A stretch of 64,000 nucleotides of DNA, taken from NCBI GenBank assembly GCA_039815185.1, contig JBCBZT010000027.1, forward strand, positions 1-64,000. Direction: 5' to 3'. Numbering within the stretch: the stretch's first letter is position 1; each line of letters begins with the position of its first letter. The position numbers and the translations under genes were made by a program. Positions 4,429 through 58,993 of the stretch are shown here, piece by piece. The notes below the pieces were generated by a model. The model saw only the letters and a program-made list of their open reading frames with translations. It did no database searches and was not told where the DNA came from. Source of the stretch: Cyanobacteria bacterium P01_A01_bin.123. Its GTDB lineage: Bacteria; Cyanobacteriota; Cyanobacteriia; Phormidesmidales; Phormidesmidaceae.

Positions 4429-4461
4429 ATCCTATCTTTAAATTGAGAAGAAAGTCGGAAA
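4429..4461 (-). promoter_or_regulatory. Degenerate copy of the shared island promoter motif
   Basis: TTTCCGA-CTTTC-TTCTCAATT-N6-TAGGAT upstream of the graspetide precursors. Confidence 0.5.
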
Positions 4462-4509
4462 GCAAACATAATCATGTGTTTTCATACACCGTTGTTAACT
4501 CATGCTGCT

Positions 4510-5583
4510 TTAGGATTGCCTAGCCGCATTGTTTCGACAGAGCTGCGTGTTGGGGTGTTCAGGGCCAACGGTGGCTTCAAAGCAGGCGATCGCCCGCTCA
4601 AAGAGTTCCCCTGCCTCCGTGCTCCGATCCATTTTCTGTAAGAGAGAAGCCAAATTATTGAGGCTAATGGCGACATCGGGATGTTCCGATCCCAAGAGGG
4701 TCTCTTTAAGCTCCAAGGCTCGACGATAGGCTTGCTCTGCTGACTCAAGCTCACCTTTGGCTTGCAATGAGGCGGCTAAATTATTGAGATTAATCGCAAT
4801 TTCATAGTGAATCGGGCCAAATTGCTGCTCAAAAAAGGCGATCGCGGCTTCAAAATAAGCGATCGCGTCGTCATACTGTTCCAGTCCATGCAGAATCGAA
4901 CCTAAGGCGGCTGCGTCGGCAATGGTTTTGGCATGATCAGCTCCCAGTAAATCCACATGGAGCTGATAGGACTTACGGGCATAGGGTTCGGCCTCGACAT
5001 AATGACGACGGGAATGGTTGAGCCCCCCTAAATTGTGATAAATCGTGGCGACCTCAATATGTTGCTCACCATGGCGCTCAATTAGCGCCGCCAGTGCGGT
5101 CTGGTAGAGGTCTTCCGCCGCCTCAAATTTGCCCCAGTATTTATAGACAATGGCTAAATCGTTGAGCAGCCGAATCCAAATGGGTTGATGACGTAGGCCC
5201 TGATCTTCAACGAGTTGAATGACTTGCTGAAAGACCTGTTCGGCCTGGGGATAGTGGCCCTGAATGCGGGCTAAGGTGCCTTGCTGAGACGAGAGTTTCA
5301 GCTCTAATGGCAACGAGATCTTGGCTGGATAGTTTGCTTTGATCTCGTTTAGGGCGAGTTGAGCAGCTTGGAGCTGAGTTTGGGCTTCGCCGTAGCGGGC
5401 TTGGGCTTCTAAGCTGGTAATCAAATGACTTTGCAGCTTCACCTGCAGTACCCAACCAACTGGAGTAGGGGGCAAGTCAGCCAGCAATTGCTTGCAAAGT
5501 GCTTCTGCCTCAGAGTGGTTATCTTGGGCCTGCAAGTGAGTGACTTGGTTCATTTGCAGTTGCCAATCACTTGTAGTAACCAT
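4510..5583 (-). CDS. Tetratricopeptide-repeat protein (kinesin-light-chain-like TPRs)
   Basis: Repeated HPDVAISLNNLA/IYHNLG units; start overlaps the stop of the upstream precursor (TGATG). Confidence 0.9.
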   Translation of the reverse strand: MVTTSDWQLQMNQVTHLQAQDNHSEAEALCKQLLADLPPTPVGWVLQVKLQSHLITSLEAQARYGEAQTQLQAAQLALNEIKANYPAKISLPLELKLSSQQGTLARIQGHYPQAEQVFQQVIQLVEDQGLRHQPIWIRLLNDLAIVYKYWGKFEAAEDLYQTALAALIERHGEQHIEVATIYHNLGGLNHSRRHYVEAEPYARKSYQLHVDLLGADHAKTIADAAALGSILHGLEQYDDAIAYFEAAIAFFEQQFGPIHYEIAINLNNLAASLQAKGELESAEQAYRRALELKETLLGSEHPDVAISLNNLASLLQKMDRSTEAGELFERAIACFEATVGPEHPNTQLCRNNAARQS

Positions 5584-5780
5584 CACGAATACTGTGTCTT
5601 GACCATCGTTTCATTATGGTTGCGGGGCAGACCAGCACCGACTATCTCAGTCAATGCTGCTTCACTCAGCTCCGTGATATCAAGTAGCTGCATGTCTGCA
5701 TCCCAGTCACTATCTGTTAAATCAATGTCTGAAAAAATTAACTCTAGTTGTGGTTTCTTAGCTTGGGATTGCTGTTTCAT
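5583..5780 (-). CDS. Single-cassette NHNET precursor peptide
   Basis: ITELSEAALTEIVGA-GLPR-NHNETM. Confidence 0.8.
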   Translation of the reverse strand: MKQQSQAKKPQLELIFSDIDLTDSDWDADMQLLDITELSEAALTEIVGAGLPRNHNETMVKTQYS

Positions 5781-5829
5781 CGGACTGACTCAATTAAGGA
5801 ATGTGCTAGATATATGTCGTATGCCACAT

Positions 5830-5861
5830 AGGGTATGGAGCAATCGAGAAGAATTCGGGAA
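5830..5861 (-). promoter_or_regulatory. Shared island promoter motif
   Basis: TTCCCGA-ATTC-TTCTCGATT-GCTCCA-TACCCT. Confidence 0.7.
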
Positions 5862-5864
5862 GCC

Positions 5865-5972
5865 CCCTACGAAGACATGAACATCACCGGGGTCACGGGC
5901 TTAAACGAAGCCCAAAAAGTAACACTGAAAGCCTTGGGGGCTGCGTCGGGCAACGACTTGGATAGGCTTTAA
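5865..5972 (+). pseudogene. 3'-end relic of a fourth NB-ARC-WD40 gene
   Basis: Encodes [26 protein letters not shown], matching the C-termini of the three intact paralogs. Confidence 0.8.
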
Positions 5973-5977
5973 CTCGA

Positions 5978-7228
5978 TCACTGAGCGTAATCGGCATCTT
6001 GAGTCACCTGCAGTCGGGCTGTGTTCAGGTAATGACCGATAAAGGCGTGGCTCGTGAGGCCAAAATCTGTGACCGCCAGCATAACCAGGGGCTTGTTAGC
6101 GGTATTTTTAACTTGGTGAGCGGCCCAACGCGGTACAAAAACAATATCGCCAGCGTTCACTTCCAATTGTTTCTGGCCAATCGAAGCGGTTCCTTGGCCT
6201 TGCTGAATCACTAGGAGTGCTTCGTGGGCATGACGATGACGCTCATTCGTTTTGTTGGGCGCAATCCTGACCAATCGTGGATCGAGGACTTCTGAGGGCG
6301 TCGTCAGTCGTTCAACGGTAAAATCAATGGTTTGTTTTCCCTGATTGCTTTGGTTGCGATAGAGGATAGCCCCTGACTGTCCGGCCTGATGGCGTAAGGT
6401 TTGATCACCATTACTGAGAGACTGTCGAGCCTGAATTTTTCCTAGTAATGGCTGAATTCGCCTCACCTGAAGCTGCTCATAAAGTGCAGTGAAGAACTGC
6501 TCACGCAAGTCTAAAGCTAAGGCCAACACACGATGGCAAGTTGCAAACCAGTTGGGTTCGCTAGCGTAAGAGAGCATAATGTTCTCTAAGGTCACGGCAT
6601 GGTTGTCATCACAGGCGATGTGGAGGTGAAAAAAGGTGAGATGCTCATCGGTCACTCCGGCTTGCTGTAGCCCTTGGACAAAAATTTCATACATTTGAGG
6701 CACAATGCCTTCGGTCCCCAAGGCTAAAAATGCAGCACTTGAACAGGCTGGCGATCGCAGGCAAAAACTGAGTACCTCATTCACAAACAGCTGAGTTGCT
6801 GGCTCAGGCTTTAACTCATCTAAAGCAATGCCTAAGCCCTGGGTCAAGAAGCGACGAAATAACTCAGCATGGCGTTGGTTTGGATCTGTTTCGCCACTTT
6901 CCTCCCAAAGATTTTCGACCAGTTGGGCGCGGTGTACATCGCTCTCTAAATTAGCCATTAACCCCGCTAAATAGCGCGTGAAGCTTTGAGCGTAAAAGGA
7001 GTACTGACCAAAAATAAACTGAAAATCATCGATACTCAAATGTCCTGCTTGGCACGCCCTAAAAAGAGGGTTTTGCCACAAGGAGTGGTTAGCTTGAAAC
7101 TCCCGCAGCTCTAATAATTTGGATGCAAGCTCAGTATTTGAGCAAGACTGATTGTAAAGTTGTTTGTTGTCTAATTTTAAGGATGGGAGTAACCTAGGAA
7201 ACTCTATTTTTTCAATCATCTGATCCAT
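5978..7228 (-). CDS. Heme-oxygenase-like diiron oxidase (TenA/PqqC/CADD-like) fused to a C-terminal cupin
   Basis: ENLWEESG..HAELF, LGTEG, FFHLHIACDDNHA ligand pattern; cupin HRHAHEA..GDIVFVPRWAAHQV. Confidence 0.85.
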   Translation of the reverse strand: MDQMIEKIEFPRLLPSLKLDNKQLYNQSCSNTELASKLLELREFQANHSLWQNPLFRACQAGHLSIDDFQFIFGQYSFYAQSFTRYLAGLMANLESDVHRAQLVENLWEESGETDPNQRHAELFRRFLTQGLGIALDELKPEPATQLFVNEVLSFCLRSPACSSAAFLALGTEGIVPQMYEIFVQGLQQAGVTDEHLTFFHLHIACDDNHAVTLENIMLSYASEPNWFATCHRVLALALDLREQFFTALYEQLQVRRIQPLLGKIQARQSLSNGDQTLRHQAGQSGAILYRNQSNQGKQTIDFTVERLTTPSEVLDPRLVRIAPNKTNERHRHAHEALLVIQQGQGTASIGQKQLEVNAGDIVFVPRWAAHQVKNTANKPLVMLAVTDFGLTSHAFIGHYLNTARLQVTQDADYAQ

Positions 7229-7364
7229 TATTATTGTCCTGCCACTTGAATTGATAGGGATTAAGATGCCAAATCTTAGGTTTTCTGCAAATTCAGAAAA
7301 CCTGTTGATAAAACTTCTCTCACAGAGCGCTGCAATGATACTGACTGTTTAATTAAAGACTGGT

Positions 7365-8810
7365 TTAAATGCCATACTCTTCAGGGCTGGCTTCAATACC
7401 ATTACCGACAATTGCCGCCAAATCCTCTCCACTGAGGTAAATGATCTGAGTTGATTGGGTTGGAGCAGACTCTTTGATATCGACTAGGGTTTCATTATGA
7501 TTTTCACCACAATCGTCTGGTGTGCAGCCACTACCACCACCACCACCACCTATACCGCCTACGATCGCTGCTAAATCTTTCACACCGAGTTCAATGATCT
7601 GAGTTGATTGGGCTTGAGTAGACTCTTTGATATCGACTAGCGTTTCATTATGGTTCCCACCACATGTCCACCGGGGACATTCGCTCCCACCTGCACCTGC
7701 GATCGCTTCCAAATCTTCCACACTGAGTTCAATTGGTTTTGTTTCTTGCGATTGAGTGGAGTCTTGGGTATGGATCAGCGTTTCATTGTGGTTAGTACCA
7801 CAAGTCCAAGGTGGACACTGACGATAACTGCCACCACCACCCATACCCCCAACGATCGCCTCCAAATCCTCTTCACTGAGGTAAATGATCTGAGTTGATT
7901 CGGTTTGAGTAGATTCTTTGATATCAATGAGCGTTTCGTTGTGGTTTTCACCACAATCATCTGGGGTGCAGCCATTACCACCACCACCATTACCTATACC
8001 GCCTACGATCGCATCCAAATCTTCTTCACTGAGTTCAATGATCTGGATTGATTGGATTGGAGCAGACTCTTTAATATCGACTAGCGTTTCGTTGTGGTTA
8101 ACCCCACATTCCTCTTCAGGACATGTTGTACCTCCTCTGAAACCGCCTGCGATCGCCTCCAAATCCTCTCCACTGAGATAAATGATCTGAGTTGATTGGG
8201 ATTGAGTAGAATTCGTATTGACCAACATTTCGTTATGGTTAACCCCACAGTGATCTGGAGGGCAATCAATACCACCTGCGATCGCCTCCAAATCTTCCAC
8301 ACTGAGTTCAATTGGTTCTGTTTCTTGCGATTGAGTGGAGTCTTGGGTATGGATCAGTGTTTCATTGTGGTTAGTACCACAAGTCCAAGGTGTACACTGA
8401 CGATCACCGCCACCACCCATACCCCCAAAGATCGCCTCCAAATCCTCTTCAGTGAGTTCAATGATCTGGTTTGATTCGGTTTGAGCAGCATCTGCAACAC
8501 TAATGATTGTTTCGTTGTGGTTTTCGCCACAATCATCTGGCGTGCAGCTAGTACCACCACCACCGTTACCGGCACCACCAACGATCGCCTCCAAATCTTC
8601 TTCACTGAGTTCAATGAGCTGGGTTGATTTGGATTGAGTAGCATCTGCAACACCAATGAGCGTTTCGTTGTGGTTGTCGGGCATTCCTGCGCCTACAATT
8701 GCCCCCAAATCCTCTTCGCTGAGTTCAATCAGTTCTGTATTGAGCTCAATCATTTGAGCGGGTTCAGGTTGAGTAGATTGAATCTTTAGGGGTACGTGGG
8801 TCTTTAACAT
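7365..8810 (-). CDS. Ten-module cassette precursor peptide (9 NHNE cassettes)
   Basis: Ten repeats of I(E/Y)LSxEDLxAIxG(G/A/N); eight cores carry CxxxxC; AAGGAG RBS. Confidence 0.9.
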   Translation of the reverse strand: MLKTHVPLKIQSTQPEPAQMIELNTELIELSEEDLGAIVGAGMPDNHNETLIGVADATQSKSTQLIELSEEDLEAIVGGAGNGGGGTSCTPDDCGENHNETIISVADAAQTESNQIIELTEEDLEAIFGGMGGGGDRQCTPWTCGTNHNETLIHTQDSTQSQETEPIELSVEDLEAIAGGIDCPPDHCGVNHNEMLVNTNSTQSQSTQIIYLSGEDLEAIAGGFRGGTTCPEEECGVNHNETLVDIKESAPIQSIQIIELSEEDLDAIVGGIGNGGGGNGCTPDDCGENHNETLIDIKESTQTESTQIIYLSEEDLEAIVGGMGGGGSYRQCPPWTCGTNHNETLIHTQDSTQSQETKPIELSVEDLEAIAGAGGSECPRWTCGGNHNETLVDIKESTQAQSTQIIELGVKDLAAIVGGIGGGGGGSGCTPDDCGENHNETLVDIKESAPTQSTQIIYLSGEDLAAIVGNGIEASPEEYGI

Positions 8811-8986
8811 CTGTCTTCTCCTTGTAAGGCTTGATTGGGATGATTAAATAATCGAAAAAATGAGGATGGGCTCTCAAACAGTATTGAGGCATTAGTTAAT
8901 AGTGCGATGGGTATTGGCGTAGCCCCTCCTGAGGGACTCGACCGACCCAAAAGAGCCATCGCACGTATTTGTTCTGTAAGTGATGA

Positions 8987-9427
8987 CTAACCCTCACTTA
9001 CAGGCTCATCATCTTCTTTACTTCTGCCACCACAGATCAGGGTTAAGTCCTCTGCTGAGAGTTTGACCAGCTTTGGCTGAGCAGAATTAGTTTTTTGGGT
9101 AGTCTCCAGTAGCGTTTCATTATGATTGAGCAGGATACCGTCGCCATGCTCGTTGTCATTTCCGCTACTATAGCCACCGACAATCGCCGCCAAATCTTCC
9201 ACACTGAGTTCAACAATCTGTGTTGATTGGGTTGGAGTAGACTCTTTAATATCGACTAGCGTTTCGTTGTGGTTGGCACTTACCGCATCACCACTAATAT
9301 CATCGCTGCCTTTACTTTCACTACTACCACCAACAATTACTTCCAGATTCTCCATACTGAGTTCTATGATTTGAGTGGGTTCAAGTTGAGTAGATTGAAT
9401 CTTTAGGGGTACGTGGGTCTTTAACAT
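8987..9427 (-). CDS. Three-module precursor (2 NHNET cassettes + terminal RSKEDDEPVSEG core)
   Basis: Leader repeats; N-terminus nearly identical to 7365..8810. Confidence 0.9.
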   Translation of the reverse strand: MLKTHVPLKIQSTQLEPTQIIELSMENLEVIVGGSSESKGSDDISGDAVSANHNETLVDIKESTPTQSTQIVELSVEDLAAIVGGYSSGNDNEHGDGILLNHNETLLETTQKTNSAQPKLVKLSAEDLTLICGGRSKEDDEPVSEG

Positions 9428-9602
9428 CTATCTTCTCCTTGTAAGGTTTGATTGGGATGATTAAATAATCGAAAAATGAGGATGGGCTCTCAATCAGTAT
9501 TGAGGCGTTAGTTAATAGTGCGACGGGTATTGGCGTAGCCACTCCTGAGGGACTCGACCGACCTAAAAGAGCCACCGCACTGATTTGTTCTGTCAGTGAT
9601 GA

Positions 9603-10031
9603 CTAACCCTCACCTATAGGCTCATCATCTTCTTTCCCTCTACCACCACAGATCAGGGTTAAGTCCTCTGCGGAGAGTGTGACAAGCTTAGGTTGGTCAG
9701 AAGCAGGTTTTGAAGGAGTACTCATGAGGGTTTCGTTGTGGTTCATACTGACACCATCACCATTTTCTGCTTCATAACTACCCTGGACACCGCCCAAAAT
9801 TTCTCCCAAGTCCTCCACACTCAGTTCAACGATTTCTTTTGATTTAGTTTGAGCAGGCTTTGCTTTGCTAATGATCGTTTCATTGTGGTTAAAGGCTACT
9901 TGACCGCCTGAGATTTCGGCCAAGTCTTCCTGGGTTAATTTAAGCAAATCTGCACTTGTGATCAAGTCACTTTCTGCTGGCTTAGCCTCTTCAAAAAGTA
10001 ACGCTAGTTCTTGCCGTAATTGATTGTTCAT
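9603..10031 (-). CDS. Three-module precursor (2 NHNET cassettes + terminal RGKEDDEPIGEG core)
   Basis: Leader repeats; AAGGAG RBS. Confidence 0.9.
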   Translation of the reverse strand: MNNQLRQELALLFEEAKPAESDLITSADLLKLTQEDLAEISGGQVAFNHNETIISKAKPAQTKSKEIVELSVEDLGEILGGVQGSYEAENGDGVSMNHNETLMSTPSKPASDQPKLVTLSAEDLTLICGGRGKEDDEPIGEG

Positions 10032-10089: not shown

Positions 10090-10121
10090 ACCCTAAACTT
10101 AAATCGGGAAGATCTAGGGAA
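10090..10121 (-). promoter_or_regulatory. Shared island promoter motif
   Basis: TTCCCTA-GATC-TTCCCGATT-TAAGTT-TAGGGT. Confidence 0.7.
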
Positions 10122-13500: not shown

Positions 13501-14172
13501 CGCATCTGGGATGTCGATAGCGGCCAATGCCTTTTGTGTCTTGAAGGACACAAAAACTGGGTGTGGGCTGTTGCTTGGAGTCCCGACGGTCAAGTCTTAG
13601 CCAGTGGTTGCGACGATCAAAAAATTCGCCTCTGGGATAGCCAGCAAGGGACTTGCCTTCAAGTCCTAGAAGGACATCGCAACTTCGTACGAACGGTTGC
13701 ATGGCAACCGGTTTGCCCAACCTCCCCAATAGAGACGGGACGTTTGCTCGCCAGCGGCAGTGATGACCTCGATATTCGCCTTTGGGACACCGATACGGGC
13801 ACCTGCCTGAACACCTTAACAGGGCATTCCGTCCACGTTCGAAAAGTGACCTGGCATCCGGACGGGGTGTTGTTGGCCAGCGGTAGCGCTGATTGCACCG
13901 TCAGGGTATGGGATACCGCCAGCGGTGAATGCCTCAACGTTCTGCAAGGTCACCAGGGAACTGTCTGGGCCGTTGCCTGGAGCCCAGATGGTCAAACGCT
14001 GGCCAGCAGTAGTACCGATGAAACAATCAAGCTGTGGGATACCGCTACAGGACAATGCCTGCAAACCCTTCGTTCCATGCGCCCCTATGAAGGCATGAAC
14101 ATTACCGGCGTCACGGGCCTCACAGCGGCCCAAAAAGCGACGCTGAAAGCCTTAGGGGCTGTCGAGTGCTAG
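10576..14172 (+). CDS. HTH-NB-ARC-pentapeptide-WD40 (STAND) protein
   Basis: N-terminal [24 protein letters not shown]-like region, Walker A GMGGIGKT, Walker B LVILDN, many WD40 repeats. Confidence 0.92.
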
Positions 14173-15219
14173 GCCGTGCATGCAAGGTTGATTTTCTAAC
14201 TGTCGCAAATTTGCCACCTGTCGGGCGGCTTCAACAGTAGAGATATCGCCATCTCTGGCACAGTCGAAAATGTCGATTAAGGTGCTATGAATGCCGTGAA
14301 TGTGCCCTTTGGCTCTGGCCGCTTGATAGCCAATCAGTTCGTGATAGACATTAATTAATCCACCCGCATTAATCACAAAATCAGGACAATAAAGCATCCC
14401 TTGCTGCTTGAGCAAATTAGTATCCCGACGTTCGTCCGCTAGCTGGTTGTTTGCACAGCCAGCAATAATGGGGGCTTGAATCTGACGTAGTGTCGCCGGG
14501 TTAATCACACCCCCTAACGCGCAGGGTGAAAAGACATCCACGGCCAACCCATAAATCTGATCTGGCGGGACAACTGTGGCCCGATAGCGCTGCTGGGCCA
14601 AGGCTGTTTTTTGTGCATCTAAATCACTCACAAAGAGCTGAGCACCGTGTAAACATAAATAATCACAGAGGGTTTGCCCGACGTTGCCTAAGCCTTGAAT
14701 GGCAACTTTTAAGTCACTCAGCGATCGCCCTGGCCAACGAAATGCCACGGCGGCTTTAATCCCCAATAAAACCCCTTGGGCTGTGGCGATCGCAGGCCCA
14801 CCCCCTTTGTCTTGCACGCCAACGACATAGTTGGTCACCTGATGCATAGTGCGGACATCCGCTGGGCCGAGGTTAACGTCTTGCCCGGTGATGAAGCGAC
14901 CGCCAAGACTCTCGACAACACGAGCGTAGGCTTGGAGTAGGGCTGCTGTTTTGGCCTCAGGATGGGCGATGATCACGCCTTTTGCACCGCCGACTGGGAT
15001 ATTGGCACAGGCGGCTTTATCGGTCATGCCTCGACTCAGACGCAAGACATCAGTCAGGGCCTCGGCTTCATTTTGGTAGGGCCAGAGTCGTGTGGCGCCC
15101 ATGGCCCGCCCAGGGGTGGTGTCATGCAAAGCGATGAAGGCCTTGAGCCCAGTTGTTTGGTCGTGGCAGTAAAGGACCTGCTCGTGGTCTAAGCTTTGAA
15201 TTGTTTGGACGCGTGTCAT
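14152..15219 (-). CDS. Glu/Leu/Phe/Val-family amino acid dehydrogenase, ScyB (tryptophan dehydrogenase)-like
   Basis: [56 protein letters not shown]; probable ATG 15219. Confidence 0.85.
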
Positions 15220-15290
15220 GGGTTTGAGGGGTTTTTGCAGGTAACGGTTGATGTTGGCGTAGCCTCTCCACCGGAGAGGCGCTTGTGGCG

Positions 15291-16703: not shown

Positions 16704-16746
16704 GATTTCTATTTCCAGGTTGGGGGGTATCTATTGGTGGTTTGGT

Positions 16747-16839: not shown

Positions 16840-16890
16840 TTTGGTGAAGCAACAGGAAACCTGTCGCGTCACTTTCTTGCTCTTTTAACG

Positions 16891-48817: not shown

Positions 48818-49866
48818 GGGGGCGACGCTGAAGGTGTTGGGGGCGGTTGATTCTGGAGGGGAGGGGGCGACAGAGGTCGCTTCTGTCCTCGGTAAAGTCG
48901 CTGTAGTCGTTTGCGATATTCCACTAGAATTTGGTCAAAACGGCCAAGGCACATGCCAGTCAAATCCACCCGCAGATCGGCAATTTTTTCCAGCATTTGC
49001 TTGTCGCGTTTCACCTCATGATCGAGTACCCATCGCAAAATATGCTTCTGCACTAGATGGAAGATCAAACGCCCCCAGCGAGGGTTGGCTAGGTAATGCA
49101 ACGAGATGCACTGGGTTTGATGGTCATTGATCGGGTTGAAGAAAAAGACTGAGCGTAACCGTTCCTGACGAGGTTGACCGGTTTTGGAATTTTCCCAATA
49201 CATTTCGTAGGTGTGGTAAACCGGGGAGAAGTGCATGGTCAGGTGATTGAAAAAGCGATCGCCGCCGTACATCCCAAATAACTTTTCTAGGAGCCAAGGG
49301 AGGGGGCGTTGGGGCACAATCGACAATAGCTGGATACGATCCTCATGGCTAAAGTCAAAGATCGGCTCGACTACAGCCGTGTCGGCCAGGTTATACCCAA
49401 AGAAGGTATGGCTGGTGGGGGCATGCTCCATCTCGGCAAAGATATCCACCACCAGCTCCAGGGGCACATCAATCCGATGCTCTAGGGTGCAGCTAAACTC
49501 ATATTCAGGAAAATTTAGCTCGGGGAGTTGGGCCTTGCTGTCTGATGCTTTAACCCAGATCCACCTATACTGCTCTGTTGTTTCCAGGCTATGGGCACAA
49601 GGCCTGAGGTTAGGGGTACTCAGACTCTGGCCCTGACCATTGGGGGCATAGCACCAGCCATGGAAAGGACACACTAAGCGATCGCCCTCGACCCAGCCTT
49701 GACTCAGGCGCATCCGACGGTGGGGGCAGCTATCCTTGAGGGCACCAATCTCACCAGTCTGGGTGCGAAACAGAACAAATTCTTGTCCGCAGAGCTGGAT
49801 GGCAACCGGCTGCTGCGTTAACGCCTGACTTTGCAGGACAGGATGCCAGTGATCGAGTTCAGTCAT
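48802..49866 (-). CDS. Rieske non-heme iron oxygenase
   Basis: CPHR..CPFHGW Rieske motif; EMEHAPTSH mononuclear iron motif. Confidence 0.9.
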   Translation of the reverse strand: MTELDHWHPVLQSQALTQQPVAIQLCGQEFVLFRTQTGEIGALKDSCPHRRMRLSQGWVEGDRLVCPFHGWCYAPNGQGQSLSTPNLRPCAHSLETTEQYRWIWVKASDSKAQLPELNFPEYEFSCTLEHRIDVPLELVVDIFAEMEHAPTSHTFFGYNLADTAVVEPIFDFSHEDRIQLLSIVPQRPLPWLLEKLFGMYGGDRFFNHLTMHFSPVYHTYEMYWENSKTGQPRQERLRSVFFFNPINDHQTQCISLHYLANPRWGRLIFHLVQKHILRWVLDHEVKRDKQMLEKIADLRVDLTGMCLGRFDQILVEYRKRLQRLYRGQKRPLSPPPLQNQPPPTPSASPPCLQP

Positions 49867-51539
49867 GAGATCCCTCCTAGGGTTAAATACTGGGAGTTGG
49901 AACGGTCTGGGGTGGTTTGGTATAGATCATCAATCGCGGTCTGAAAATAAGCCTGAATTGCAGTACGGCGCAGCTTGCCATTGGCGGTGAGCAAGCCATT
50001 GGCCTGACTGAAGGGCTCACGGGTGAGGTAGAATTTGCGAATTTTTTGATAGTGGGGAACGGTCTCGTTGAAGTGGTGAATGGCGATCGCTAACGTAGAC
50101 TCATCGACTGAACCCGTAAGAATGGCACAGAGAAAGGGTCGCCCATGACCCACCAGCACAGCTTGTTCCATGCCGTCACAAGCCTCGATCAGTCGTTGTT
50201 CTAAGGGTTCTGGGGCAATGTTGTGGCCTGAGGTCGGCACCAAGAGATGTTTGAGACGACCAATGATCCGCCAATGACCTGAGGCACTGACTTCGGCTTG
50301 ATCACCGGTATGGAACCAGCCCTCGCGGATGACTTGAGCCGTTGCTGCTGGATTGTTCCAGTACCCGGCAAAGATATTGGGCCCCCGGCAAACCAGTTCG
50401 CCTTGCGGCGTTAAGCGCACTTCACAGTCTTGAATAGCATGACCGACGTAGCCCGGTATGGGTGATTGAAGGGGATCGAGGGTAACCAGACCTGTGGTTT
50501 CAGTGAGGCCATAGCCCTGGTAGATCGGGATGCCAATCATGGCAAACCAGCGTTGGGTTTCGATCCGCAAGGGGGCCGAGCCACAGATAATCAGTTGGAG
50601 ATGGGGGGCGATCGCCCGTTTGATTTGGGCCAATAGGGTTAGGCTCACGCCTTTAAAGATCAAGGCGTCAACCCAGCGGTGTCCTGTCAGCGAGCGGTCA
50701 TAAGCCTGCTGGCCAACTGTAAACAGCCATTGGGCAATACGCCCCTGCTGTTTTAAGGCTTGCTCAATGCCACTGCGGAACCGCTCCAGCACCATGGGCA
50801 CGGTCAAAAAGAACGCCGGATCGGCATAGCGGAGATCCGCTGCCAGATTGTCTAACTGGGTGCATAGGGTTAACGGACGCCCTTGATACAGCTGGGCCCA
50901 AAGGATGAGATGGGCGGGGGCAAAGCAAAAGGGTAAAAAGTGAAAGGCACCGCCTTTGTCGGTTGACGGCTGGGTTGCAGCTTCAAGCCGCTGGCTGATT
51001 AAGGGAATCATGTAGTCAAAGTTGGCGCGGGTGAGCATCACCCCCTTAGATGCCCCGCTAGTGCCCGAGGTATAGATCAAGGCGATCACTGCATCCGCTG
51101 GAATGGGGTAAGGCGCTGCCTGGGTGGGTTCAGCGTCAAATGCGTCATCGACTAAGGCGATCGCACCGGGAGTAAGCCAGATCTCCGTCATTGCTTCCCC
51201 AAGCGCTGAATCCCCGACCAGTAGCAATTTGGGTTGGCAGTCTGCCAGCATTTTGGCTAGTTCTGGCAGACTCTGGCGGCTATATAGCGGTACTACAATT
51301 GCCCCTTCTGCCAAAATCGCCAGCTCCAGGGCAACCCAGCGAGCTGAGTTGGGGGCCAGTAATGCCACGCGATCGCCGGGACATACCCCCTGATTTGCAA
51401 TAAAGGTACGGGCACGACGAATCTGCAGCGCTAACGCTGCCGCTGAGATATCGACCCATTGTTGATCATGGATTTCCCTGAGAATCGGTTGATTCTGCAG
51501 CTGATGTAAGTTTTGGACAATCGTTTCCAGAAAGTTCAT
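49863..51539 (-). CDS. Long-chain fatty acid-CoA ligase / AMP-binding protein
   Basis: IYTSGTSGASKGVML, QGYGLTET, GWFHTGD; ATG 51539 with GGAG RBS. Confidence 0.9.
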   Translation of the reverse strand: MNFLETIVQNLHQLQNQPILREIHDQQWVDISAAALALQIRRARTFIANQGVCPGDRVALLAPNSARWVALELAILAEGAIVVPLYSRQSLPELAKMLADCQPKLLLVGDSALGEAMTEIWLTPGAIALVDDAFDAEPTQAAPYPIPADAVIALIYTSGTSGASKGVMLTRANFDYMIPLISQRLEAATQPSTDKGGAFHFLPFCFAPAHLILWAQLYQGRPLTLCTQLDNLAADLRYADPAFFLTVPMVLERFRSGIEQALKQQGRIAQWLFTVGQQAYDRSLTGHRWVDALIFKGVSLTLLAQIKRAIAPHLQLIICGSAPLRIETQRWFAMIGIPIYQGYGLTETTGLVTLDPLQSPIPGYVGHAIQDCEVRLTPQGELVCRGPNIFAGYWNNPAATAQVIREGWFHTGDQAEVSASGHWRIIGRLKHLLVPTSGHNIAPEPLEQRLIEACDGMEQAVLVGHGRPFLCAILTGSVDESTLAIAIHHFNETVPHYQKIRKFYLTREPFSQANGLLTANGKLRRTAIQAYFQTAIDDLYQTTPDRSNSQYLTLGGIS

Positions 51540-51591
51540 GGGTTGTTCTCCGAGTAGGCGGTTCTCTGGGTCTCCAACCAAATAGAAAGAC

Positions 51592-53019
51592 CTAGGCATA
51601 TTGCATCAGCAACTGAGTCGTGGTTGCCGATAGTGGGGGCAAATAGGCGTACCAAGCAGGCGATCGCTCAATTTGAGGAAAATCTGGATACACACGAGCC
51701 ACTTCGCCCATAAAGTCGCGCCCCATTTGTCCCATCAACCGCAGTTGCCGAACCACGGTTTGGGCAATCCTTTGGGCAATCGCTTCCCGGTCTTGATCCA
51801 GGCGATGCAGCATAGGTAGCAATTTCTCTCCCAGACCGGGATCGTCAACCTCCAGCAGTAGGTCGAGATGGTGGCGATCGCTCATCAAATTGCGAATGCG
51901 TTCATCCATCGTCACGCCTACAGAGGGCACCAGCCCCGGCATAGAGGTAACAATCGCGTGGAAACGGGAACTCACAAGAAATGCGCTCTGGCGCAAAATA
52001 CCGACCAGTTCATGCAGGGTGTATTGATCACTGATGAAACAGGGCGCTGGTGATGAAAGCTGGGCATTGAGGTCATAGCAAGCCCGTCGATCCAGGCGCT
52101 CCATACCCACCACCACGGTGAAAATATCCCGCTGCTGGCTAAAGGCATTCACGGCCTGGGCCAACCCCTGAATATAGGTGCGATATTGACGATCCGCTGT
52201 GGCTGAATGGTGGTGAAAATAAAGGGATTTGTAATGCTGTTCCCGATATTTGCCAGTCAAACCCTGGTGAATAAACTTGCGCAGACTGGGCTTGATTGGC
52301 CACCAAAAGGGATTGATGGGACAAAGGGTTAGAACCGGACGAGTTCCATCCCAACCAGCCTGTTTGAGTAAATCGACGCCCCGTTGCGGCAAGTCGGGTT
52401 CAAACGTCCAGGCGGTGTCGGCTCCCGCCGTGCTGCGAATCCTTAACTGTTGACTGAGTAAGGTTTGAGAGGGCTGATTTCGGCAAAGGATGAGCGAATT
52501 TTGGCATTGGCGGCGAACGAAATGTTGCAAACTGGCATTCATCGCCCCTGCTTCGGCCCCGTAACCAACGCTGAGTTTTTCCTCAATGGCAGCCAACCCC
52601 AAGGCGGCTGACATCATTGTGGACAAACTATCGGCAAATTTTGATTTAAACATCGAGCCCTCACAAGCAATCACCCCATGGTGTTGAGGGCACTCGCGAG
52701 CAAGAAACTGCGGAAAAATATGGGGCAATCGCACCTGCTTGGCACCCTGAAAATAGTCTGCCGTTAGAGTCGGATCAAGGGTTGTCACCGTTAGGTCTGT
52801 GGATTGACCCAGGAGGTGCTGGAGTTGCCGCACAATCTCACTAACCCGCACATCAGCCCCGGTATTACGAGCCCCGTTGTAACCTGCTAGCAAGAGTTTG
52901 AGTGGTTTTCCCGGTCGCCATTGTTCTTGGGGCCATCCCAGGGTGCGCTTGATGCGAGTCGCTTGGGTATAGCCTGTGCAGAGGAGTTGTAGGGTTTGGT
53001 CAAGGTCAAGGGGGTTCAT
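51592..53019 (-). CDS. Polysaccharide pyruvyl-transferase-family protein
   Basis: LAGYNGARNTGAD, CEGSMF, ILCRN, ADTAW, SSRFHA; alternative TTG start at 53142. Confidence 0.7.
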   Translation of the reverse strand: MNPLDLDQTLQLLCTGYTQATRIKRTLGWPQEQWRPGKPLKLLLAGYNGARNTGADVRVSEIVRQLQHLLGQSTDLTVTTLDPTLTADYFQGAKQVRLPHIFPQFLARECPQHHGVIACEGSMFKSKFADSLSTMMSAALGLAAIEEKLSVGYGAEAGAMNASLQHFVRRQCQNSLILCRNQPSQTLLSQQLRIRSTAGADTAWTFEPDLPQRGVDLLKQAGWDGTRPVLTLCPINPFWWPIKPSLRKFIHQGLTGKYREQHYKSLYFHHHSATADRQYRTYIQGLAQAVNAFSQQRDIFTVVVGMERLDRRACYDLNAQLSSPAPCFISDQYTLHELVGILRQSAFLVSSRFHAIVTSMPGLVPSVGVTMDERIRNLMSDRHHLDLLLEVDDPGLGEKLLPMLHRLDQDREAIAQRIAQTVVRQLRLMGQMGRDFMGEVARVYPDFPQIERSPAWYAYLPPLSATTTQLLMQYA

Positions 53020-53138
53020 TGTGGGGGAGGGGGGGATGGAGATGAGGGGGAGCAATAGTGGCAGGAGGGACGGGGGAGCGAGTCGTAAACGGCAACAAAG
53101 ATAGCTTGCTCCCCCGCTCCCCTTGCCCAAAAACACGC

Positions 53139-54281
53139 TCAATCGACCAAAGCATAACCAGTGTCAGTTTCAGGCCAGGGCTGATAAGGGAACTGGCAGT
53201 TGTGTTCTACTAAAAAGCGATGGAGGGGGGCTGCGTAGGTAATGAAGGGGGATGGAGCGGTTCCGAGTTCTTGGGTAATGCGGGTGTTGTCAAAAACGGT
53301 ATTGAACGTCAAGTAGGGCATAAATACTTTGAGTCGGGTGGCTGATCGGGCGATTCCCCACTGACGGGGAGTGGCGGCTAAGGCTTGGAGTAACCATGTC
53401 AAAGGCGATCGTAGTGGTGGCAAAAATAGGGGGGATACCCCTTGGGTGGCCGTGGCTAGACATTGGACAATCTGTTGGTAGGTGGGAGAGTGTATGCCTG
53501 CACTCAGGTGATAAATGGTGTGGGAGAGTTGTGCTTTTTGATGCAGGGTGGCGATCGCTTGGCCGACATAATCGGCAGGCACAATGTCAATTTGCCAGTC
53601 TGGCTGTAGCGGTATCACCCCAACTTGGTTGAGTAGGGCAAAGGCTCTGGCTGTGTCGAACTGAGTTGTTTGGGGAAAGCGGCTATCCCCGAGGACTGTA
53701 CTAGGGCGAAAGATGACATGGGGAACATCTGGCAATAATTCTTGGATGAGGTGCTCACAGAGTTTTTTGGTGGCGCCGTAGGGGTCGTAGTCTGGTCTGT
53801 CCCATTGAATCGCGTCAGTCTCGGTCACGACTTCGTTTTGGCGAATTCCAGCAACGGAGGTAGTGGAGATAGCACTGAAGCGGCGGAGGCCATGATCGCA
53901 GTGAGCGGCGCGGGCCAATTTCAAGACGGCAAGCGTACCGCGCACATTTACGTTGTGACACGCTTGAAGTGATTTGCGATTCAAGATCGCGGCGGCATGA
54001 ATCACAGACTCTGTGGAACCGACTAGTCGATCCCAGTTCTGCAGGGACAATCCCAAGCGGGGTTGGGTCATGTCTCCTAAATAGAGATCTATACGGTTGA
54101 GTGCCTGATGAAATTGCGTCGGGGTCATGTGCAATTGGAAGGCCTGCCACAACCGCGATCGCGCTGCATCAGTAGAGGTTGCCCGGACTAATAGGGCCAG
54201 GCGATCGCAGGTCGTATTTAAGAGTTCATTGGCAACGTAGGCACCGATATAGCCCGTTGCACCGGTCAATACAATCGTCAT
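53139..54281 (-). CDS. Extended SDR / male-sterility-type (thioester reductase-like) oxidoreductase
   Basis: LTGATGYIG, HAAA, YGATK, FRPSTVLGDS, VPADYV. Confidence 0.85.
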   Translation of the reverse strand: MTIVLTGATGYIGAYVANELLNTTCDRLALLVRATSTDAARSRLWQAFQLHMTPTQFHQALNRIDLYLGDMTQPRLGLSLQNWDRLVGSTESVIHAAAILNRKSLQACHNVNVRGTLAVLKLARAAHCDHGLRRFSAISTTSVAGIRQNEVVTETDAIQWDRPDYDPYGATKKLCEHLIQELLPDVPHVIFRPSTVLGDSRFPQTTQFDTARAFALLNQVGVIPLQPDWQIDIVPADYVGQAIATLHQKAQLSHTIYHLSAGIHSPTYQQIVQCLATATQGVSPLFLPPLRSPLTWLLQALAATPRQWGIARSATRLKVFMPYLTFNTVFDNTRITQELGTAPSPFITYAAPLHRFLVEHNCQFPYQPWPETDTGYALVD

Positions 54282-54294
54282 GGGATGCTCACAT

Positions 54295-55752
54295 CTATAG
54301 CTCAGGCTGTAAGGCGTTCAATAAAGTCCGTTTGGGCAAGGTGCATTTGAGCTGCTGCCGAGTATCAACCAAAAACCCTGTCCGCAGAAAATACGCGAAA
54401 TAGGTGTGTAGGAGCTGCTCATTAACGCTGGGACAGTAGATAGCCGCTCTATCTAGGACGGTTTGGGTCTGTTGGCTATCGAATTTGGGGCGTCTAGCCT
54501 GCTGATATAACTCTGGTAAGGTCAGATCTGTGTCTGGCAGTTGCCGTCGAAAGAATGGCCGCAGCGGCACTAGGGGATTGTCCTGGGAATAGAGTTGGTG
54601 GAGCTGATCGAGCCAGTCATGGTAAGCAATTTGCTTCACAGCAAACCCAAAGGATTGTATCCAGCTAACCAACTGATGCCAGGGGTAGGGTTTGGGATTG
54701 GTGAGATGGAAGGTTTGACCGATGGCGTCTGGCTGCTGTGACAGATAAATAATGCTGCGGCTGACATAGTCTACCGGGGCTAAATCGAGCTGGTAATCCA
54801 GGTCAGGGGCAGTGCCCATCTGCAGACAACCCTTGATCAGGCGACAGATCAGATCATCGGTGTTGACGACCCCTGTTTGGCTGTGGCCAGAAATAAAAGG
54901 CGCTCGGTAAATGCAGACGGGCAAGCCGCGATCGCGGGCGCTGATCATTAGTTTTTCGGCGACCCACTTACTTTGGGAATAGCCCAGGCCAATGCCCTCG
55001 CTATGGATTAACGGGTCTGACTCCAGGATTTGTTTGTGGGCATAGGCCGGGGAGTCAAACACCGCAACGCTGGAAACATAGTGAACGGGTGCGTCCTGAC
55101 TGCAACTCGCCAACCGTAAGACTTCCTGGGTACCTTGAACATTCACTGATCGCAAGCGGGCGTAATCATAAACGTAGTTCAACAATGCGCCACTGTGGTA
55201 AATGCAGCCAATTTGATCCGCGAGGTGCTGAAATTGCTCGGGTGAGAGTCCGAAGTAGGGCTGACCTAAATCGCCAATGACGGGCATAATGCGATCGCAA
55301 TTAGTCTCATGCCAGAGACCATAGGCTTGGAGATTAGTCTGAATACGCTGCTTTCCTGAAGACACATCAGCAGCTCTCACCAGGCAGTAACAGTTAGCCT
55401 GAGTCCGCTGCAGCAGCTCTTGGAGGATAAAAGCCCCTAAGAACCCAGTAGCTCCGGTCAAGAAAATTGCCGATGGGCGGTGCTGCGAGTCTGGGGGCGT
55501 TGCTTTGGGTTGAATACTGGAATCCAGCACAACTTCTGAGGTTAAATCTCCCAGGAAAAAACCGTCTGATTCGGTTGCAATGGCAGACTGCTGTTGAACT
55601 AATGCCAAAAGTGTGGGTTTATGTTGGCGTAGCGTCTGTTGCAGCTTTGGGGTTAAAACCCCTTTGGGGGCTTTAATGTGGAGCTGATCCTGCTTAGCCC
55701 AGAGCGTTGCCCCCCGTTGGCGGAGAGCACTTAGCAATTGATCAGGGGTCAT
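54295..55752 (-). CDS. Stand-alone thioester reductase with TubC-like N-terminal docking domain
   Basis: LLSALRQRGATLW..LHIKAPKGVLT..HKPTLL; FLTGATGFLG, GYSQSKWVAE, PVDYVS. Confidence 0.88.
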   Translation of the reverse strand: MTPDQLLSALRQRGATLWAKQDQLHIKAPKGVLTPKLQQTLRQHKPTLLALVQQQSAIATESDGFFLGDLTSEVVLDSSIQPKATPPDSQHRPSAIFLTGATGFLGAFILQELLQRTQANCYCLVRAADVSSGKQRIQTNLQAYGLWHETNCDRIMPVIGDLGQPYFGLSPEQFQHLADQIGCIYHSGALLNYVYDYARLRSVNVQGTQEVLRLASCSQDAPVHYVSSVAVFDSPAYAHKQILESDPLIHSEGIGLGYSQSKWVAEKLMISARDRGLPVCIYRAPFISGHSQTGVVNTDDLICRLIKGCLQMGTAPDLDYQLDLAPVDYVSRSIIYLSQQPDAIGQTFHLTNPKPYPWHQLVSWIQSFGFAVKQIAYHDWLDQLHQLYSQDNPLVPLRPFFRRQLPDTDLTLPELYQQARRPKFDSQQTQTVLDRAAIYCPSVNEQLLHTYFAYFLRTGFLVDTRQQLKCTLPKRTLLNALQPEL

Positions 55753-56087
55753 AGGACGATTTCCTCCTCCTCCATTTCCCTAGCGTTGCCACAATATTGT
55801 GCTAGGGCCGCGATCGTGGGATAGGTGTAGGGTAGGGTGGGCTCTAGTTTATGGCCTAGCCAGTTTTCTAAATCTCCGGCCATACCAAAAACCACGACTG
55901 AATCCAAGCCATAACTGTCAAAGGTGGCATGACTGTCGATGTCATCGTTGGTCACCTCCAAAAGTTCAGCCAGGTAGGCAACTAACCACTTCTGAATGTC
56001 ATCGGGTGTTTGAGACGGGAGACTAGCACGATGGTTGTTAGCCAGCGGAGAAACCTGTTGAGGACTTTGAAGTTGTAAGCGATTCAT
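55749..56087 (-). CDS. Acyl carrier protein
   Basis: FDSYGLDSV phosphopantetheine motif, YPTIAALA; probable ATG 56087. Confidence 0.9.
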   Translation of the reverse strand: MNRLQLQSPQQVSPLANNHRASLPSQTPDDIQKWLVAYLAELLEVTNDDIDSHATFDSYGLDSVVVFGMAGDLENWLGHKLEPTLPYTYPTIAALAQYCGNAREMEEEEIVL

Positions 56088-56157
56088 GATCTTAATGTTT
56101 GGAGCATTGGGTCTAGACAATGAAAATTGGGTATTGTGGTTGCGAATTCGTTGGTTA

Positions 56158-58806
56158 TCAGACTCGGCATTTCGCAGTTTCCACGGTTGCCGCCGAAGGC
56201 ACTTTGACATCCCACACCAGACCTAACCGAGTTAATGCCCGAATCAGCCAACCGCCAATGTCAATTTGCCACCATGCCAGTCCGAAAAGTGCTGAATAGG
56301 CAAAGGCGTGATGATTGTTGTGCCATGCTTCTCCCAGCGTAGGGATTGCCAGCCAGACATTGTTAGTACTCTGCTCTCGGGTCACAAAAGGACGTTGACC
56401 GAAGCAATGACAAATAGAATTGATGCTGAACGTGGATTGTTGCACAAGCCAGATACGAACTAGCCCACCCCATAAAAATCCTTCCCATGCCCCCGACCAT
56501 GAGACACTGAGTCCACCCCCGAGGAGGGTAGGGATAATCAGCCCTAATGCCGTCCAGAGATAGTATCTGCTACTCAGCCAATTGACTAAGGCATCTTGCA
56601 TCAGATCCTTAGCAAAGGCATGAGTATTGGTGATTTCTGGAATTAGAATCCACCCACTATGCGCATGCCATAAACCCTGGATCAATCCTCGCAATCCTGG
56701 CCCACTGAGATGGGGAGAATGGGGATCACCAGGACTATCCGTATAGCTATGGTGCCGCCGATGCTGCGCAACCCAATAAATCAAAGGGGCTTGGGCTGCC
56801 ATTGATCCGAGAATGGCCAAGCTGGTTTTGACCGACCGATGGGCTTTGAACGCTCTGTGGGCAAAGTATCGGTGGAAACCTACCGTGATGCCAACCATGG
56901 TGGCCAGATACATGCTGCCTAAAAGACTCAGGTCTAAACCGCTAACGCCCCACTTCCAGCTCCACGCCAATGCCACGATGCAGCCCAGTAAGGGCAGCAA
57001 ATTCGTAACCATGAGGTGATGCCGCTGGCGCTGTACGAGATGGCTATGCTTAAACGTGAGGGGTGCTTTTTTGGGTGATGTCTGTAAAGCGCCTGGTGCT
57101 CCAGCAATGCTCCGTAAGTCATTGGTCAAGAAGGCGGCCCGACAAGCCCGTCGCTGAATTTTGCCGCTCGATGTCTTGGGAATACTGCCGGGTCGCACCA
57201 AGACAGCACGGTGCAAATCTAGGGCATGGTGAGTTGCGATCGCCTGCCGGATTGCAACCATCACTGCCTTGACATCCAGTTTCCTCAAGTGGCTACGTTC
57301 TATTTCTTGGACAACCACTAACCGCTCTGCCCCCTCAACATCAATGGCAAAGGCTGCACCTGCATTGGCTTGCAAAGCTGGATGACTGGCCGCTACTGTG
57401 TGCTCAATATCCTGGGGATAGTGGTTTTGCCCCCGGATGATGATCAAATCTTTGAGTCGCCCCGTTACGAAGAGTTGGCCATTGAGCTCAAACCCTAAAT
57501 CGCCGGTGCGGAGGAAGGGGCCAACGCCCGTATCCGCGAGATCAGCCTGGAAGGTTTGGGCCGTGGCTTCAGGCTGTTGCCAATACCCCTGAGCCACACT
57601 CGGCCCTGAAATCCAGATCTCACCGACTTGGCCGATAGAACATGGGGTTAGGGTTTCGGGATGCACAATGTAAAGTTGATGGTCAGGGGTAGTTTGGCCA
57701 CAGCTAACAATGGTGCGATCGCTAGCGGATACTTCAACCGCCGGCACCACCTGATGCTGCTCTAAGGCAGCTCCATCAACCGGTTGCACAATCGGCTGGG
57801 TGCCCTTGTGGCCACCAGCTATCAGCAGCGTAGCCTCCGCCATGCCATAACACGGATAAAAAGCCGTCTGTCGAAAACCATAGGGGGCAAAGGTTTGACT
57901 AAATTGCGATAACGTCTCTGGCCGAATGAGCTCGGCTCCCGTAAAGGCAATATCCCAATTACTCAAATCGAGATCGGCCATCTGGTCAGGTCGAATTTTA
58001 CGGACGCAGAGGTCATAGGCAAAATTAGGCCCACCACTGATGGTGGCTCGATGCTGAGAAATTGCATGCAGCCAGCGCATCGGTTTTTGCAAAAACATTA
58101 CTGGCGACATTAGCGTTATCGGGAAACCCGCGTAGAGGGGTTGGAGCACGCCGCCAATCAGCCCCATGTCGTGATACGGTGGCAACCAAATGACACCCCG
58201 GCTTTCCGAGGTATGTCCAAAGGCTTGCTGAATTCCCTGCAAGTTGTTGAGCAAATTGCCATGACTCACCATAACGCCCTTGGGTTTGCCAGTGGACCCA
58301 GAGGTATACTGCAGAAACGCTAAGGTGTCGCTGGTGATCGGCGGCGCTTGCCAATTAATTGCTTGCTCAAGGGCCAGCTGATCCGTGGAGAACCATGCCA
58401 GGGTGGCAAGATCAGGAACCTGAGCGGCTTGGTGACTCATGGTGGCCCAGGCTGCGGTAGTCGTCAAGGCCACTGCCGCTTCAGCGTCGGCTGCGATCGC
58501 CCTAAGTCTTTCCAGGGTTTGATTGCGGCGTGGAGGATAGGCTGGCACCGGGATCAGGTTGGCGTATAAGCAGCCAAAGAAGGCGGCAATGAATGCTAAC
58601 CCTGGCGGATAAATCAACAATGCCCGAGTCCCGGCTGGGTATTGAGATTGGAGTTGAGCTGCGATCGTTCGGGCTTGCAGATCCAGTGCTTGATAGGTCA
58701 AAGATTCAGACTTTGCTTCCCCATCTGTCAAAAAGGTATAGGCAATTTGATCGGGTTGGTGCAAAGCGCGATCGCTCAAAAGTTCAATTAAGGTTGAGTA
58801 ATGCAT
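56158..58806 (-). CDS. Fatty acyl-AMP ligase fused to a membrane acyl desaturase
   Basis: AFLQYTSGSTGKPKG, WLPPYHDMGLIG, YGMAEATL, LRTGDLG, PKTSSGKIQR; His boxes HRYFAH, HRRHH, HNNHH. Confidence 0.92.
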   Translation of the reverse strand: MHYSTLIELLSDRALHQPDQIAYTFLTDGEAKSESLTYQALDLQARTIAAQLQSQYPAGTRALLIYPPGLAFIAAFFGCLYANLIPVPAYPPRRNQTLERLRAIAADAEAAVALTTTAAWATMSHQAAQVPDLATLAWFSTDQLALEQAINWQAPPITSDTLAFLQYTSGSTGKPKGVMVSHGNLLNNLQGIQQAFGHTSESRGVIWLPPYHDMGLIGGVLQPLYAGFPITLMSPVMFLQKPMRWLHAISQHRATISGGPNFAYDLCVRKIRPDQMADLDLSNWDIAFTGAELIRPETLSQFSQTFAPYGFRQTAFYPCYGMAEATLLIAGGHKGTQPIVQPVDGAALEQHQVVPAVEVSASDRTIVSCGQTTPDHQLYIVHPETLTPCSIGQVGEIWISGPSVAQGYWQQPEATAQTFQADLADTGVGPFLRTGDLGFELNGQLFVTGRLKDLIIIRGQNHYPQDIEHTVAASHPALQANAGAAFAIDVEGAERLVVVQEIERSHLRKLDVKAVMVAIRQAIATHHALDLHRAVLVRPGSIPKTSSGKIQRRACRAAFLTNDLRSIAGAPGALQTSPKKAPLTFKHSHLVQRQRHHLMVTNLLPLLGCIVALAWSWKWGVSGLDLSLLGSMYLATMVGITVGFHRYFAHRAFKAHRSVKTSLAILGSMAAQAPLIYWVAQHRRHHSYTDSPGDPHSPHLSGPGLRGLIQGLWHAHSGWILIPEITNTHAFAKDLMQDALVNWLSSRYYLWTALGLIIPTLLGGGLSVSWSGAWEGFLWGGLVRIWLVQQSTFSINSICHCFGQRPFVTREQSTNNVWLAIPTLGEAWHNNHHAFAYSALFGLAWWQIDIGGWLIRALTRLGLVWDVKVPSAATVETAKCRV

Positions 58807-58961
58807 AAGATCAAACTCGCTATCCAAAATCTGGCAGTTATCTCATCATCAAATTCAATCCAGCCAGCAAAATTGTGTTGCTAAAGATATGCACTATGAG
58901 GCTAGGGTCGAAAGATTTGTAGTCGCAAAAATCATAAAGAAGATGGCGTTGTATAGCTGTT

Positions 58962-58993
58962 AATGTATGAGGAAATCGAGAAGAAGTCGGGAA
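58962..58993 (-). promoter_or_regulatory. Shared island promoter motif upstream of the FAAL-LanM operon
   Basis: TTCCCGA-CTTC-TTCTCGATT-TCCTCA-TACATT. Confidence 0.75.

Follow-up and report, generated by a model that had tools for sequence, protein, structure and literature searches.

The DNA considered here, called the window throughout, is a stretch of 64,000 nucleotides from Cyanobacteria bacterium P01_A01_bin.123 (contig JBCBZT010000027.1, positions 1 to 64,000), and it carries arrays of peptide-precursor genes, a men-type operon and an operon that runs from a FAAL-type gene to a LanM gene. We analysed a 32-bp element, TTCCC(G/T)A-N4-TTC(C/T)CGATT-N6-TAN3T, hereafter the box, which lies upstream of these unrelated operons, together with the protein that is most likely to bind it. 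In the labels used below, G000 is the source genome (8.09 Mb), in which the window is G000:C70:1-64000, other G numbers are other genomes, and L numbers are loci.

Copies of the box in the window, the genome and other cyanobacteria

A pattern search of both strands found six exact matches to the box in the window (Table 1). These lie at all six coordinates at which an initial annotation of the same DNA had placed the element, and the orientation described there was also reproduced, with the six exact copies and the degenerate copy at 4429 each facing a co-oriented gene, 49-309 nt downstream. The pattern and matrix scan of the window further revealed a site at 23390 (+) that the annotation had not listed, and the pattern search gave another match with four mismatches at 63369 (-). 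As for the degenerate copy at 4429, it is present with four mismatches, but its score of only 6.7 bits falls inside the chance range, so that score alone does not set it apart from chance. The matrix scan of the window showed no box for the precursor units that start at 23133 and 41376, and the 58962 site was not reported by a sigma-70 consensus scan.

The annotation had traced two of the copies to a segmental duplication and had taken the rest to sit in unrelated flanks. The boxes at 21209 and 39827 indeed lie within a 2.36-kb duplication of 92% identity, but the flanks of the 10090 copy are also related to the flanks of these two (z 5.4-5.5), and therefore three copies share descent and the window holds about four independent origins of the box rather than five. 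The 28894 flanks are a borderline case (z 2.9 with 10090), and those of 5830 and 58962 are unrelated to the other copies. The upstream part of the box consists of two 11-bp units with the consensus CTTCYCGAYTK, which end 8 nt before the predicted -10 hexamer, and the 11-bp period is likewise visible in the column counts of 100 sites from other genomes.

Two matrices were used for scoring. The first, a repeat-only matrix, was derived from five window sites, using their 20-bp repeat and leaving out the -10, and was applied at a threshold of 18 bits. The six exact window sites score 28-33 on this matrix, and outside the window it gave 19 hits, 15 of them with TAN3T at exactly +6, other TAN3T offsets occurring at most once per score bin. 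The second matrix was derived from 21 sites of other genomes, which had been picked using the own-genome matrix, and was applied at a cut-off of 20 bits; with it, the six exact window copies score 25.4-41.8 bits. When the search was extended to the whole source genome, as the annotation had proposed, 28 sites of at least 20 bits were found compared with none in the reversed genome that served as control, and in 100 shuffled windows the top score was 8.0 bits on average and 17.8 bits at most, so that the motif exceeds what chance would give. Genome-wide, the box occurs in eight exact, eight one-mismatch and six two-mismatch copies, and six of the eight exact ones lie inside the window. The first genes behind boxes outside the window include those for a PAS/GAF hybrid kinase, a SARP-type regulator, a kinase-cyclase, a homocysteine S-methyltransferase, GNAT and Usp proteins, a phosphate-binding-type protein, an acyl-CoA-dehydrogenase-like protein and a small double-glycine peptide. 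Given the 28 sites against none in the reversed control, the regulon appears to be genome-wide and not private to the cluster. The proposal that apparently unrelated operons form one regulon is therefore borne out as the most likely reading of the fixed-spacing repeat before TAN3T that they share, with the addition that the regulon extends well beyond the cluster; judged from the sequence, the box is most likely an activator site that ties these operons together.

The same element recurs in other cyanobacteria. The exact pattern was found in 8 of 41 genomes, in several copies each, whereas a reversed control pattern was found in none of the 41. A GTDB scan gave 98 loci, and among the matches listed 68 of 80 have cyanobacterial titles, from several families. 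None of the 62 cyanobacterial GTDB sites with enough flank lies inside a long open reading frame; a co-oriented gene starts within 450 nt in 49 of them, and a divergent start is found in 18. When the 147 first-downstream proteins were clustered, the PAS/GAF kinase was the commonest target (13 of 147), followed by a methyltransferase, a Cache-type kinase and FAAL-type proteins (5 each), STAND-type proteins (4) and SARP (3), and 66 were singletons. A box also precedes a homolog of the window TPR gene in L106 and FAAL-type genes in L097, L113, L128 and L133.

The candidate regulator and competing binders

The protein that best accounts for this pattern is encoded outside the window, at G000:C13:125091-127646, and has only generic names in the databases. 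It is an OmpR-family response regulator of 851 aa with the domain order REC-Trans_reg_C (the winged helix-turn-helix, wHTH)-Hpt-REC-REC-GGDEF, hereafter C13. Residues D51, H356 and D616 are conserved, the phospho-acceptor aspartates and the Hpt histidine being invariant in 21 homologs; the GGDEF motif reads GNGEF, and the domain is probably inactive. Multi-domain regulators located beside sites in about ten genomes match C13 best, at 68-77% compared with at most 57% for its seven paralogs in the source genome. In a blind test, eight loci were fetched solely on the similarity of their wHTH to that of C13; seven of the eight have a site, including those of G007 and G024, where the pattern search had found none or one, and the eighth lies outside the C13 clade. 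This clade was defined by a tree of 56 regulators (quick search, all rows kept), in which 25 members group together (SH-like approximate likelihood-ratio test, SH-aLRT, 97) and have the common recognition helix DPP[LQ]E.SVK.H[IV]KGLR. A site of at least 20 bits is present at 16 of the 24 clade loci outside the source genome compared with none of 24 other loci, where the best score is 19.1, and it often lies 30-80 nt upstream of the regulator gene and points away from it, or just behind the regulator gene and before a kinase gene. With the repeat-only matrix, 293 kb of clade loci gave 22 hits, 20 of them with TAN3T at +6, while 270 kb of 24 paralog loci gave none. Finally, a profile of 220 genomes of the class showed one or more sites in 16 of the 24 genomes that have a regulator hit and in 12 of the 196 that lack one, and at least five sites in 7 of 24 compared with 0 of 196.

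Several observations weigh against this assignment. No site lies within 5 kb of the C13 gene itself, which is not linked to the window. Eight of the 24 regulator-hit genomes have no site at one mismatch, three of these lying outside the clade and two having weaker variant sites. G011 has three sites and no clade member was found in its 850 contigs, G068 has two sites and no clade member, one of the sites adjoining a single-domain CcaR-like regulator, G083 and G110 combine a variant site with a regulator that has a different helix, and G137 and G202 have two sites each and no clade hit. Since sites occur in genomes without a clade member, related wHTH proteins may read near-identical boxes. Moreover, the boundaries of 19 loci were set with the site positions already known, the second matrix is not fully independent because of how its sites were chosen, and the genomes are related, so that the counts and their Fisher values overstate independence. 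Searches with the pyruvyl-transferase-like and redox/cupin genes found no orthologous cluster that could be used for footprinting of the window operons. A metagenome scan for regulator loci confirmed none. On balance, we consider that the C13-clade regulator is probably the cognate activator that binds the box.

A different reading would have the box recognized mainly by a CcaR/RcaC-like paralog (the single-domain C16:90713 or C49:36365, CcaR, or the multi-domain C101:107766), alone or sharing sites with C13. The nearest described site is the CcaR G-box of the green-light system CcaS/CcaR, CTTTCCGATTTCTTTACGATTT (PMC8256508), which likewise has two 11-bp direct-repeat units and is read by an OmpR-family wHTH of the same broad group as the one predicted for the box. 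Although the window sites agree with this G-box at 14-18 of 22 positions, its unit core is TTTCCGA/TTTACGA and not the TTCYCGA of the box, and the source genome has a separate CcaR-like gene with its own G-box-like site before the CpcG2 gene. On the repeat matrix that site reaches 7.6, where the six exact window sites reach 28-33; on the full matrix its score is about 0, and it lacks TAN3T at +6. Arrays of similar 11-bp units adjoin C16:90713 and C49:36365, but the six genomes with the closest orthologs of the C16 type (78-89% identity) are without sites except for G006. In G068 and G049 a single-domain CcaR-like gene is followed by a box-like site, and another site lies 4.5 kb upstream of C101:107766, yet there were no repeat hits in the 270 kb of paralog loci. 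Unlike CcaR, the predicted C13 regulator is multi-domain, and no phycobilisome gene is among the recurring targets of the box or those scanned in the source genome. We therefore regard this reading as improbable. The C16-type single-domain regulator was profiled as a binder in 221 genomes and rejected, as it fails to explain the site pattern.

Two observations concern these paralogs themselves. At L018:5339 (G000:C16:93338), L215, L221, L222 and L223, ABC-transporter operons are preceded by perfect arrays in which a similar 11-bp unit occurs two to three times, in some cases beside a single-domain CcaR-like regulator; these probably constitute a sister regulon. The CcaS/CcaR-like pair with the G-box-like site before the CpcG2 gene lies at L153 (G000:C95:99000-107000), and its kinase also has a LOV-like stretch.

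It is quite unlikely that the binder of the box is a SARP activator (BTAD-AAA-TPR, G000:C115:187419-190580) which also turns on its own gene. The operators of the Streptomyces SARPs AfsR, ActII-ORF4 and PimR are described as heptamer repeats with a 4-nt spacer over the -35 region, and they control biosynthetic gene clusters (PMC10972967). The box has the same repeat and spacer layout, and in G000, G040 and G011 it immediately precedes a SARP gene, but its sequence differs, BTAD was not found in 7 of the 10 multi-site genomes (all candidates scored), one closed genome included, and the SARP loci of G005, G006, G014, G034, G035, G038 and G039 have no site, the best score there being 8.5 bits. 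The SARP gene thus reads better as a target, and SARP as the binder, an early lead, was dropped. Consequently, of the SARP/PhoB-type site that the initial annotation had recognized in the box, the repeat geometry, the fixed spacing and a co-occurring OmpR-family wHTH regulator stand, whereas the SARP genes do not track the box and instead appear among its targets.

It is very unlikely that the element serves an alternative sigma factor as its promoter, or that it is a spread repeat lacking a protein partner. In favour of these readings, three window copies share descent, and an upstream element at a fixed spacing to the -10 also typifies sigma promoters; against them, the flanks of most copies are unrelated, a direct repeat of two units makes up the upstream part, and the box is concentrated beside one response-regulator clade.

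The STAND-WD40 proteins of the cluster, whose N-terminal helix-turn-helix domains the initial annotation had put forward as binders, are highly unlikely to fill this role. A precedent is provided by XssQ of Synechocystis, a DNA-binding STAND protein that has an XRE domain and activates genes of a biosynthetic cluster (PMC8205485); two window STANDs give weak XRE-like hits (E 0.04-0.25), STAND genes adjoin the sites at 10090 and 23390 and sites in some other genomes, and three quarters of the exact genomic copies (6/8) are in the window. But neither N-terminal domain tracks the box among 50 profiled genomes: the 10576-type was found in 4 of 9 genomes with at least five sites and the 41642-type in 7 of 9, and each was also found in 12 genomes that have no exact copy, the 41642-type at 35-52% identity. 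A STAND gene is absent from the neighbourhood of most sites elsewhere, in three other loci such a gene lies in front of the box as its target, and the XssQ consensus AAGTTXXAC (PMC8205485) is unrelated to the box and has no match in nine intergenic regions checked. Two further STAND-WD40 proteins of the source genome, G000:C3:22157-26725 and 29001-33554 (-), are related to the window 41600 gene and have a BTAD (SARP) domain at the C-terminus.

Predicted target genes

The sites and the genes predicted to be controlled from them are collected in Table 1. The men-type and FAAL-to-LanM operons have eight genes each and are tightly spaced. Since menB, menA and menD have additional copies elsewhere in the genome, the men set of the window looks like a second set, which may feed a naphthoquinone-type product; no menC or menH is annotated in this operon, and its last gene is DUF2515. 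Just upstream of the men promoter, 27232-28650 holds a redox/cupin gene remnant with 82% identity to 5978-7228, beside a frameshifted transposase. Seven homologs of the redox/cupin gene were found, all in other contexts and none with a site. The FAAL-LanM operon looks rare; a search of 400 other genomes of the class at E 1e-40 gave no match to its pyruvyl-transferase-like gene (51592-53142, -).

Table 1. Positions of the box and of its predicted target genes in the window
Feature	Position	Strand	Description
Box with TAN3T	5830..5861	-	exact, 41.8 bits; 49 nt before 65-aa NHNET precursor (5583-5780), then TPR gene (4510-5586)
Box with TAN3T	10090..10121	-	exact; 58 nt before precursor array 10031 to 7365 and iron-redox/cupin gene 5978-7228
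Box with TAN3T	21209..21240	-	exact; 64 nt before 81-aa precursor heading a long array of small double-glycine precursors, down to leader-GRAS and ScyB-like genes
Box with TAN3T	28894..28925	+	exact; 309 nt before men-type operon
Box with TAN3T	39827..39858	-	exact; duplicate of 21209 box; 64 nt before gene
Box with TAN3T	58962..58993	-	exact; 134 nt before FAAL-to-LanM operon
Seventh site	23390..23421	+	3 mismatches, 24.2 bits; good repeat, TGGGCT replaces TAN3T; 63 nt before STAND-WD40 gene 23485-27117
Degenerate copy	4429..4460	-	4 mismatches, 6.7 bits; 114 nt before small precursors 4153-4314 and 3888-4055 and ATP-grasp gene
Predicted targets downstream of boxes	2573..10031	-	NHNET multi-core precursors, iron-containing redox enzyme with cupin, TPR protein, MvdD-like ATP-grasp
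Predicted targets downstream of 21209 box	14152..21144	-	small double-glycine precursor array, Nif11-like precursor, leader-GRAS fusion, ScyB-like dehydrogenase
Predicted operon	29235..38620	+	UbiE/MenG-type methyltransferase, menF, menD, menB, menE-like, glutathione S-transferase (GST), menA, DUF2515; gaps -10 to 108 nt
Predicted operon	45425..58827	-	FAAL-desaturase, acyl carrier protein (ACP), two thioester reductases, pyruvyl-transferase-like, acyl-CoA ligase, Rieske oxygenase, LanM; gaps -52 to 14 nt

The precursor region at 16891-21144 (-) encodes thirteen small or multi-core double-glycine precursors, mostly below the usual cut-offs for open reading frames, with the core types KPKEDDDP and PINIVRNG. 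Next to it, at 15291-16703 (-), a bacterial GRAS domain (Pfam E 5e-42) is joined to an NHNET precursor and a leader-like segment, a fusion that is possibly a leader-guided peptide-modifying enzyme. Directly abutting the 5830-5861 box, the leftover 3' end of a STAND-WD40 gene was read by eye at 5862-5950 (+).

Side observations were also made at loci with a box elsewhere. Where the box lies just upstream of a clade regulator (L160:7107, L164, L169, L173 and L179), it often faces a divergent small gene, a gene for a secreted-looking protein or one for a peptidoglycan-binding-like protein. In a unit conserved in three genomes (L005, at G000:C16:58995, L039 and L118), an XRE-STAND-WD40 gene lies behind the box, which faces away from it; two of the three also have a small double-glycine peptide downstream.

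Proposed mechanism, relation to known systems and meaning

Activators of the OmpR/PhoB type bind head-to-tail when phosphorylated, replace the -35 element and recruit the sigma-70 polymerase. By analogy, the 32-bp element is likely an activator-dependent promoter that would be bound by the C13 response regulator. If TAN3T is taken as the -10 hexamer at -12 to -7, the repeats would span about -38 to -21, and the phosphorylated regulator would bind them head-to-tail and recruit polymerase at a promoter without a -35. As gene neighbourhood suggests, phosphorylation would be carried out by a multi-PAS/GAF hybrid kinase (own copy G000:C104:9253-12441). The gene for this kinase, which usually adjoins that of the regulator, lies on another contig in the source genome and has retained its box, which suggests positive feedback. 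The partner kinases have PAS and GAF Pfam hits and no PHY domain, and our best guess, held with low confidence, is that the signal is an intracellular stress or redox cue sensed by the PAS/GAF domains. The regulon would take in the arrays of peptide precursors together with two operons, the second men operon and FAAL-LanM, and most of the cluster would thus be turned on by a single signal; box-bearing SARP and STAND genes would be second-tier targets.

The class of mechanism is itself well known. In comparison with RcaC and its L-box, C13 has an extra REC and a degenerate GGDEF, and the repeat of the box differs in sequence. The RcaE-RcaF-RcaC/L-box and RfpA-RfpC-RfpB systems resemble the one proposed here in that a multi-domain OmpR-type regulator acts in a phosphorelay with a hybrid kinase, sometimes with a CheY-like partner, and in that activation proceeds from a direct repeat near the promoter (PMC8256508, PMC4658448). 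However, no light-harvesting, phycobiliprotein or far-red photosystem genes are among the recurring targets of the box, and where those systems have a bilin photoreceptor as partner, the partner kinases here gave PAS/GAF hits and no PHY by Pfam. Dgc4, Dgc6, Dgc8 and Dgc9 of Leptolyngbya boryana also combine REC, Trans_reg_C, Hpt and GGDEF in one protein; the relevant text of the source lists them by domain and gives no site or regulon (bioRxiv 10.1101/2022.01.10.475764). C13 passes the score cut-off of the RppA family (NCBIfam NF041734; 294 compared with 250), but RppA is a single REC-wHTH protein of about 229 aa, whereas C13, at 851 aa, has Hpt, three REC and GGDEF. CdgS/CdgK of Anabaena was set aside as a different system, as described in PMC9927289, and the relevant text of two papers gives no site or regulon for all5174 of Anabaena. 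No description of the motif, or of a binding site for this regulator, was found in literature listings (titles and the starts of abstracts), most subscription journals being outside the search.

Thus, we conclude that the box is a real, apparently undescribed promoter element with a well-supported candidate regulator encoded outside the cluster. This pairs a DNA site with an unnamed family of cyanobacterial regulators and supplies a testable list of targets. For the window, it names the likely switch of a large and unusual cluster with multi-core peptide precursors, LanM, FAAL and a second men set, a switch that is not among the regulators encoded inside the cluster, and the predicted docking site of a two-component regulator would offer a way to switch the cluster on. 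The box also adds a close relative of the CcaR G-box, which is useful for studying how wHTH proteins discriminate between similar boxes and for predicting cross-talk. More tentatively, and as a possibility that we consider rather doubtful, the regulator could be a master switch of secondary metabolism in filamentous cyanobacteria, with the boxes before FAAL-type and polyketide-synthase-like (PKS-like) genes of other lineages extending its reach beyond this cluster and those before SARP and STAND genes forming a cascade like the AfsR/SARP hierarchy of Streptomyces; if this is true, a phosphomimetic allele would wake silent clusters across several families, and the box would predict which of them respond.

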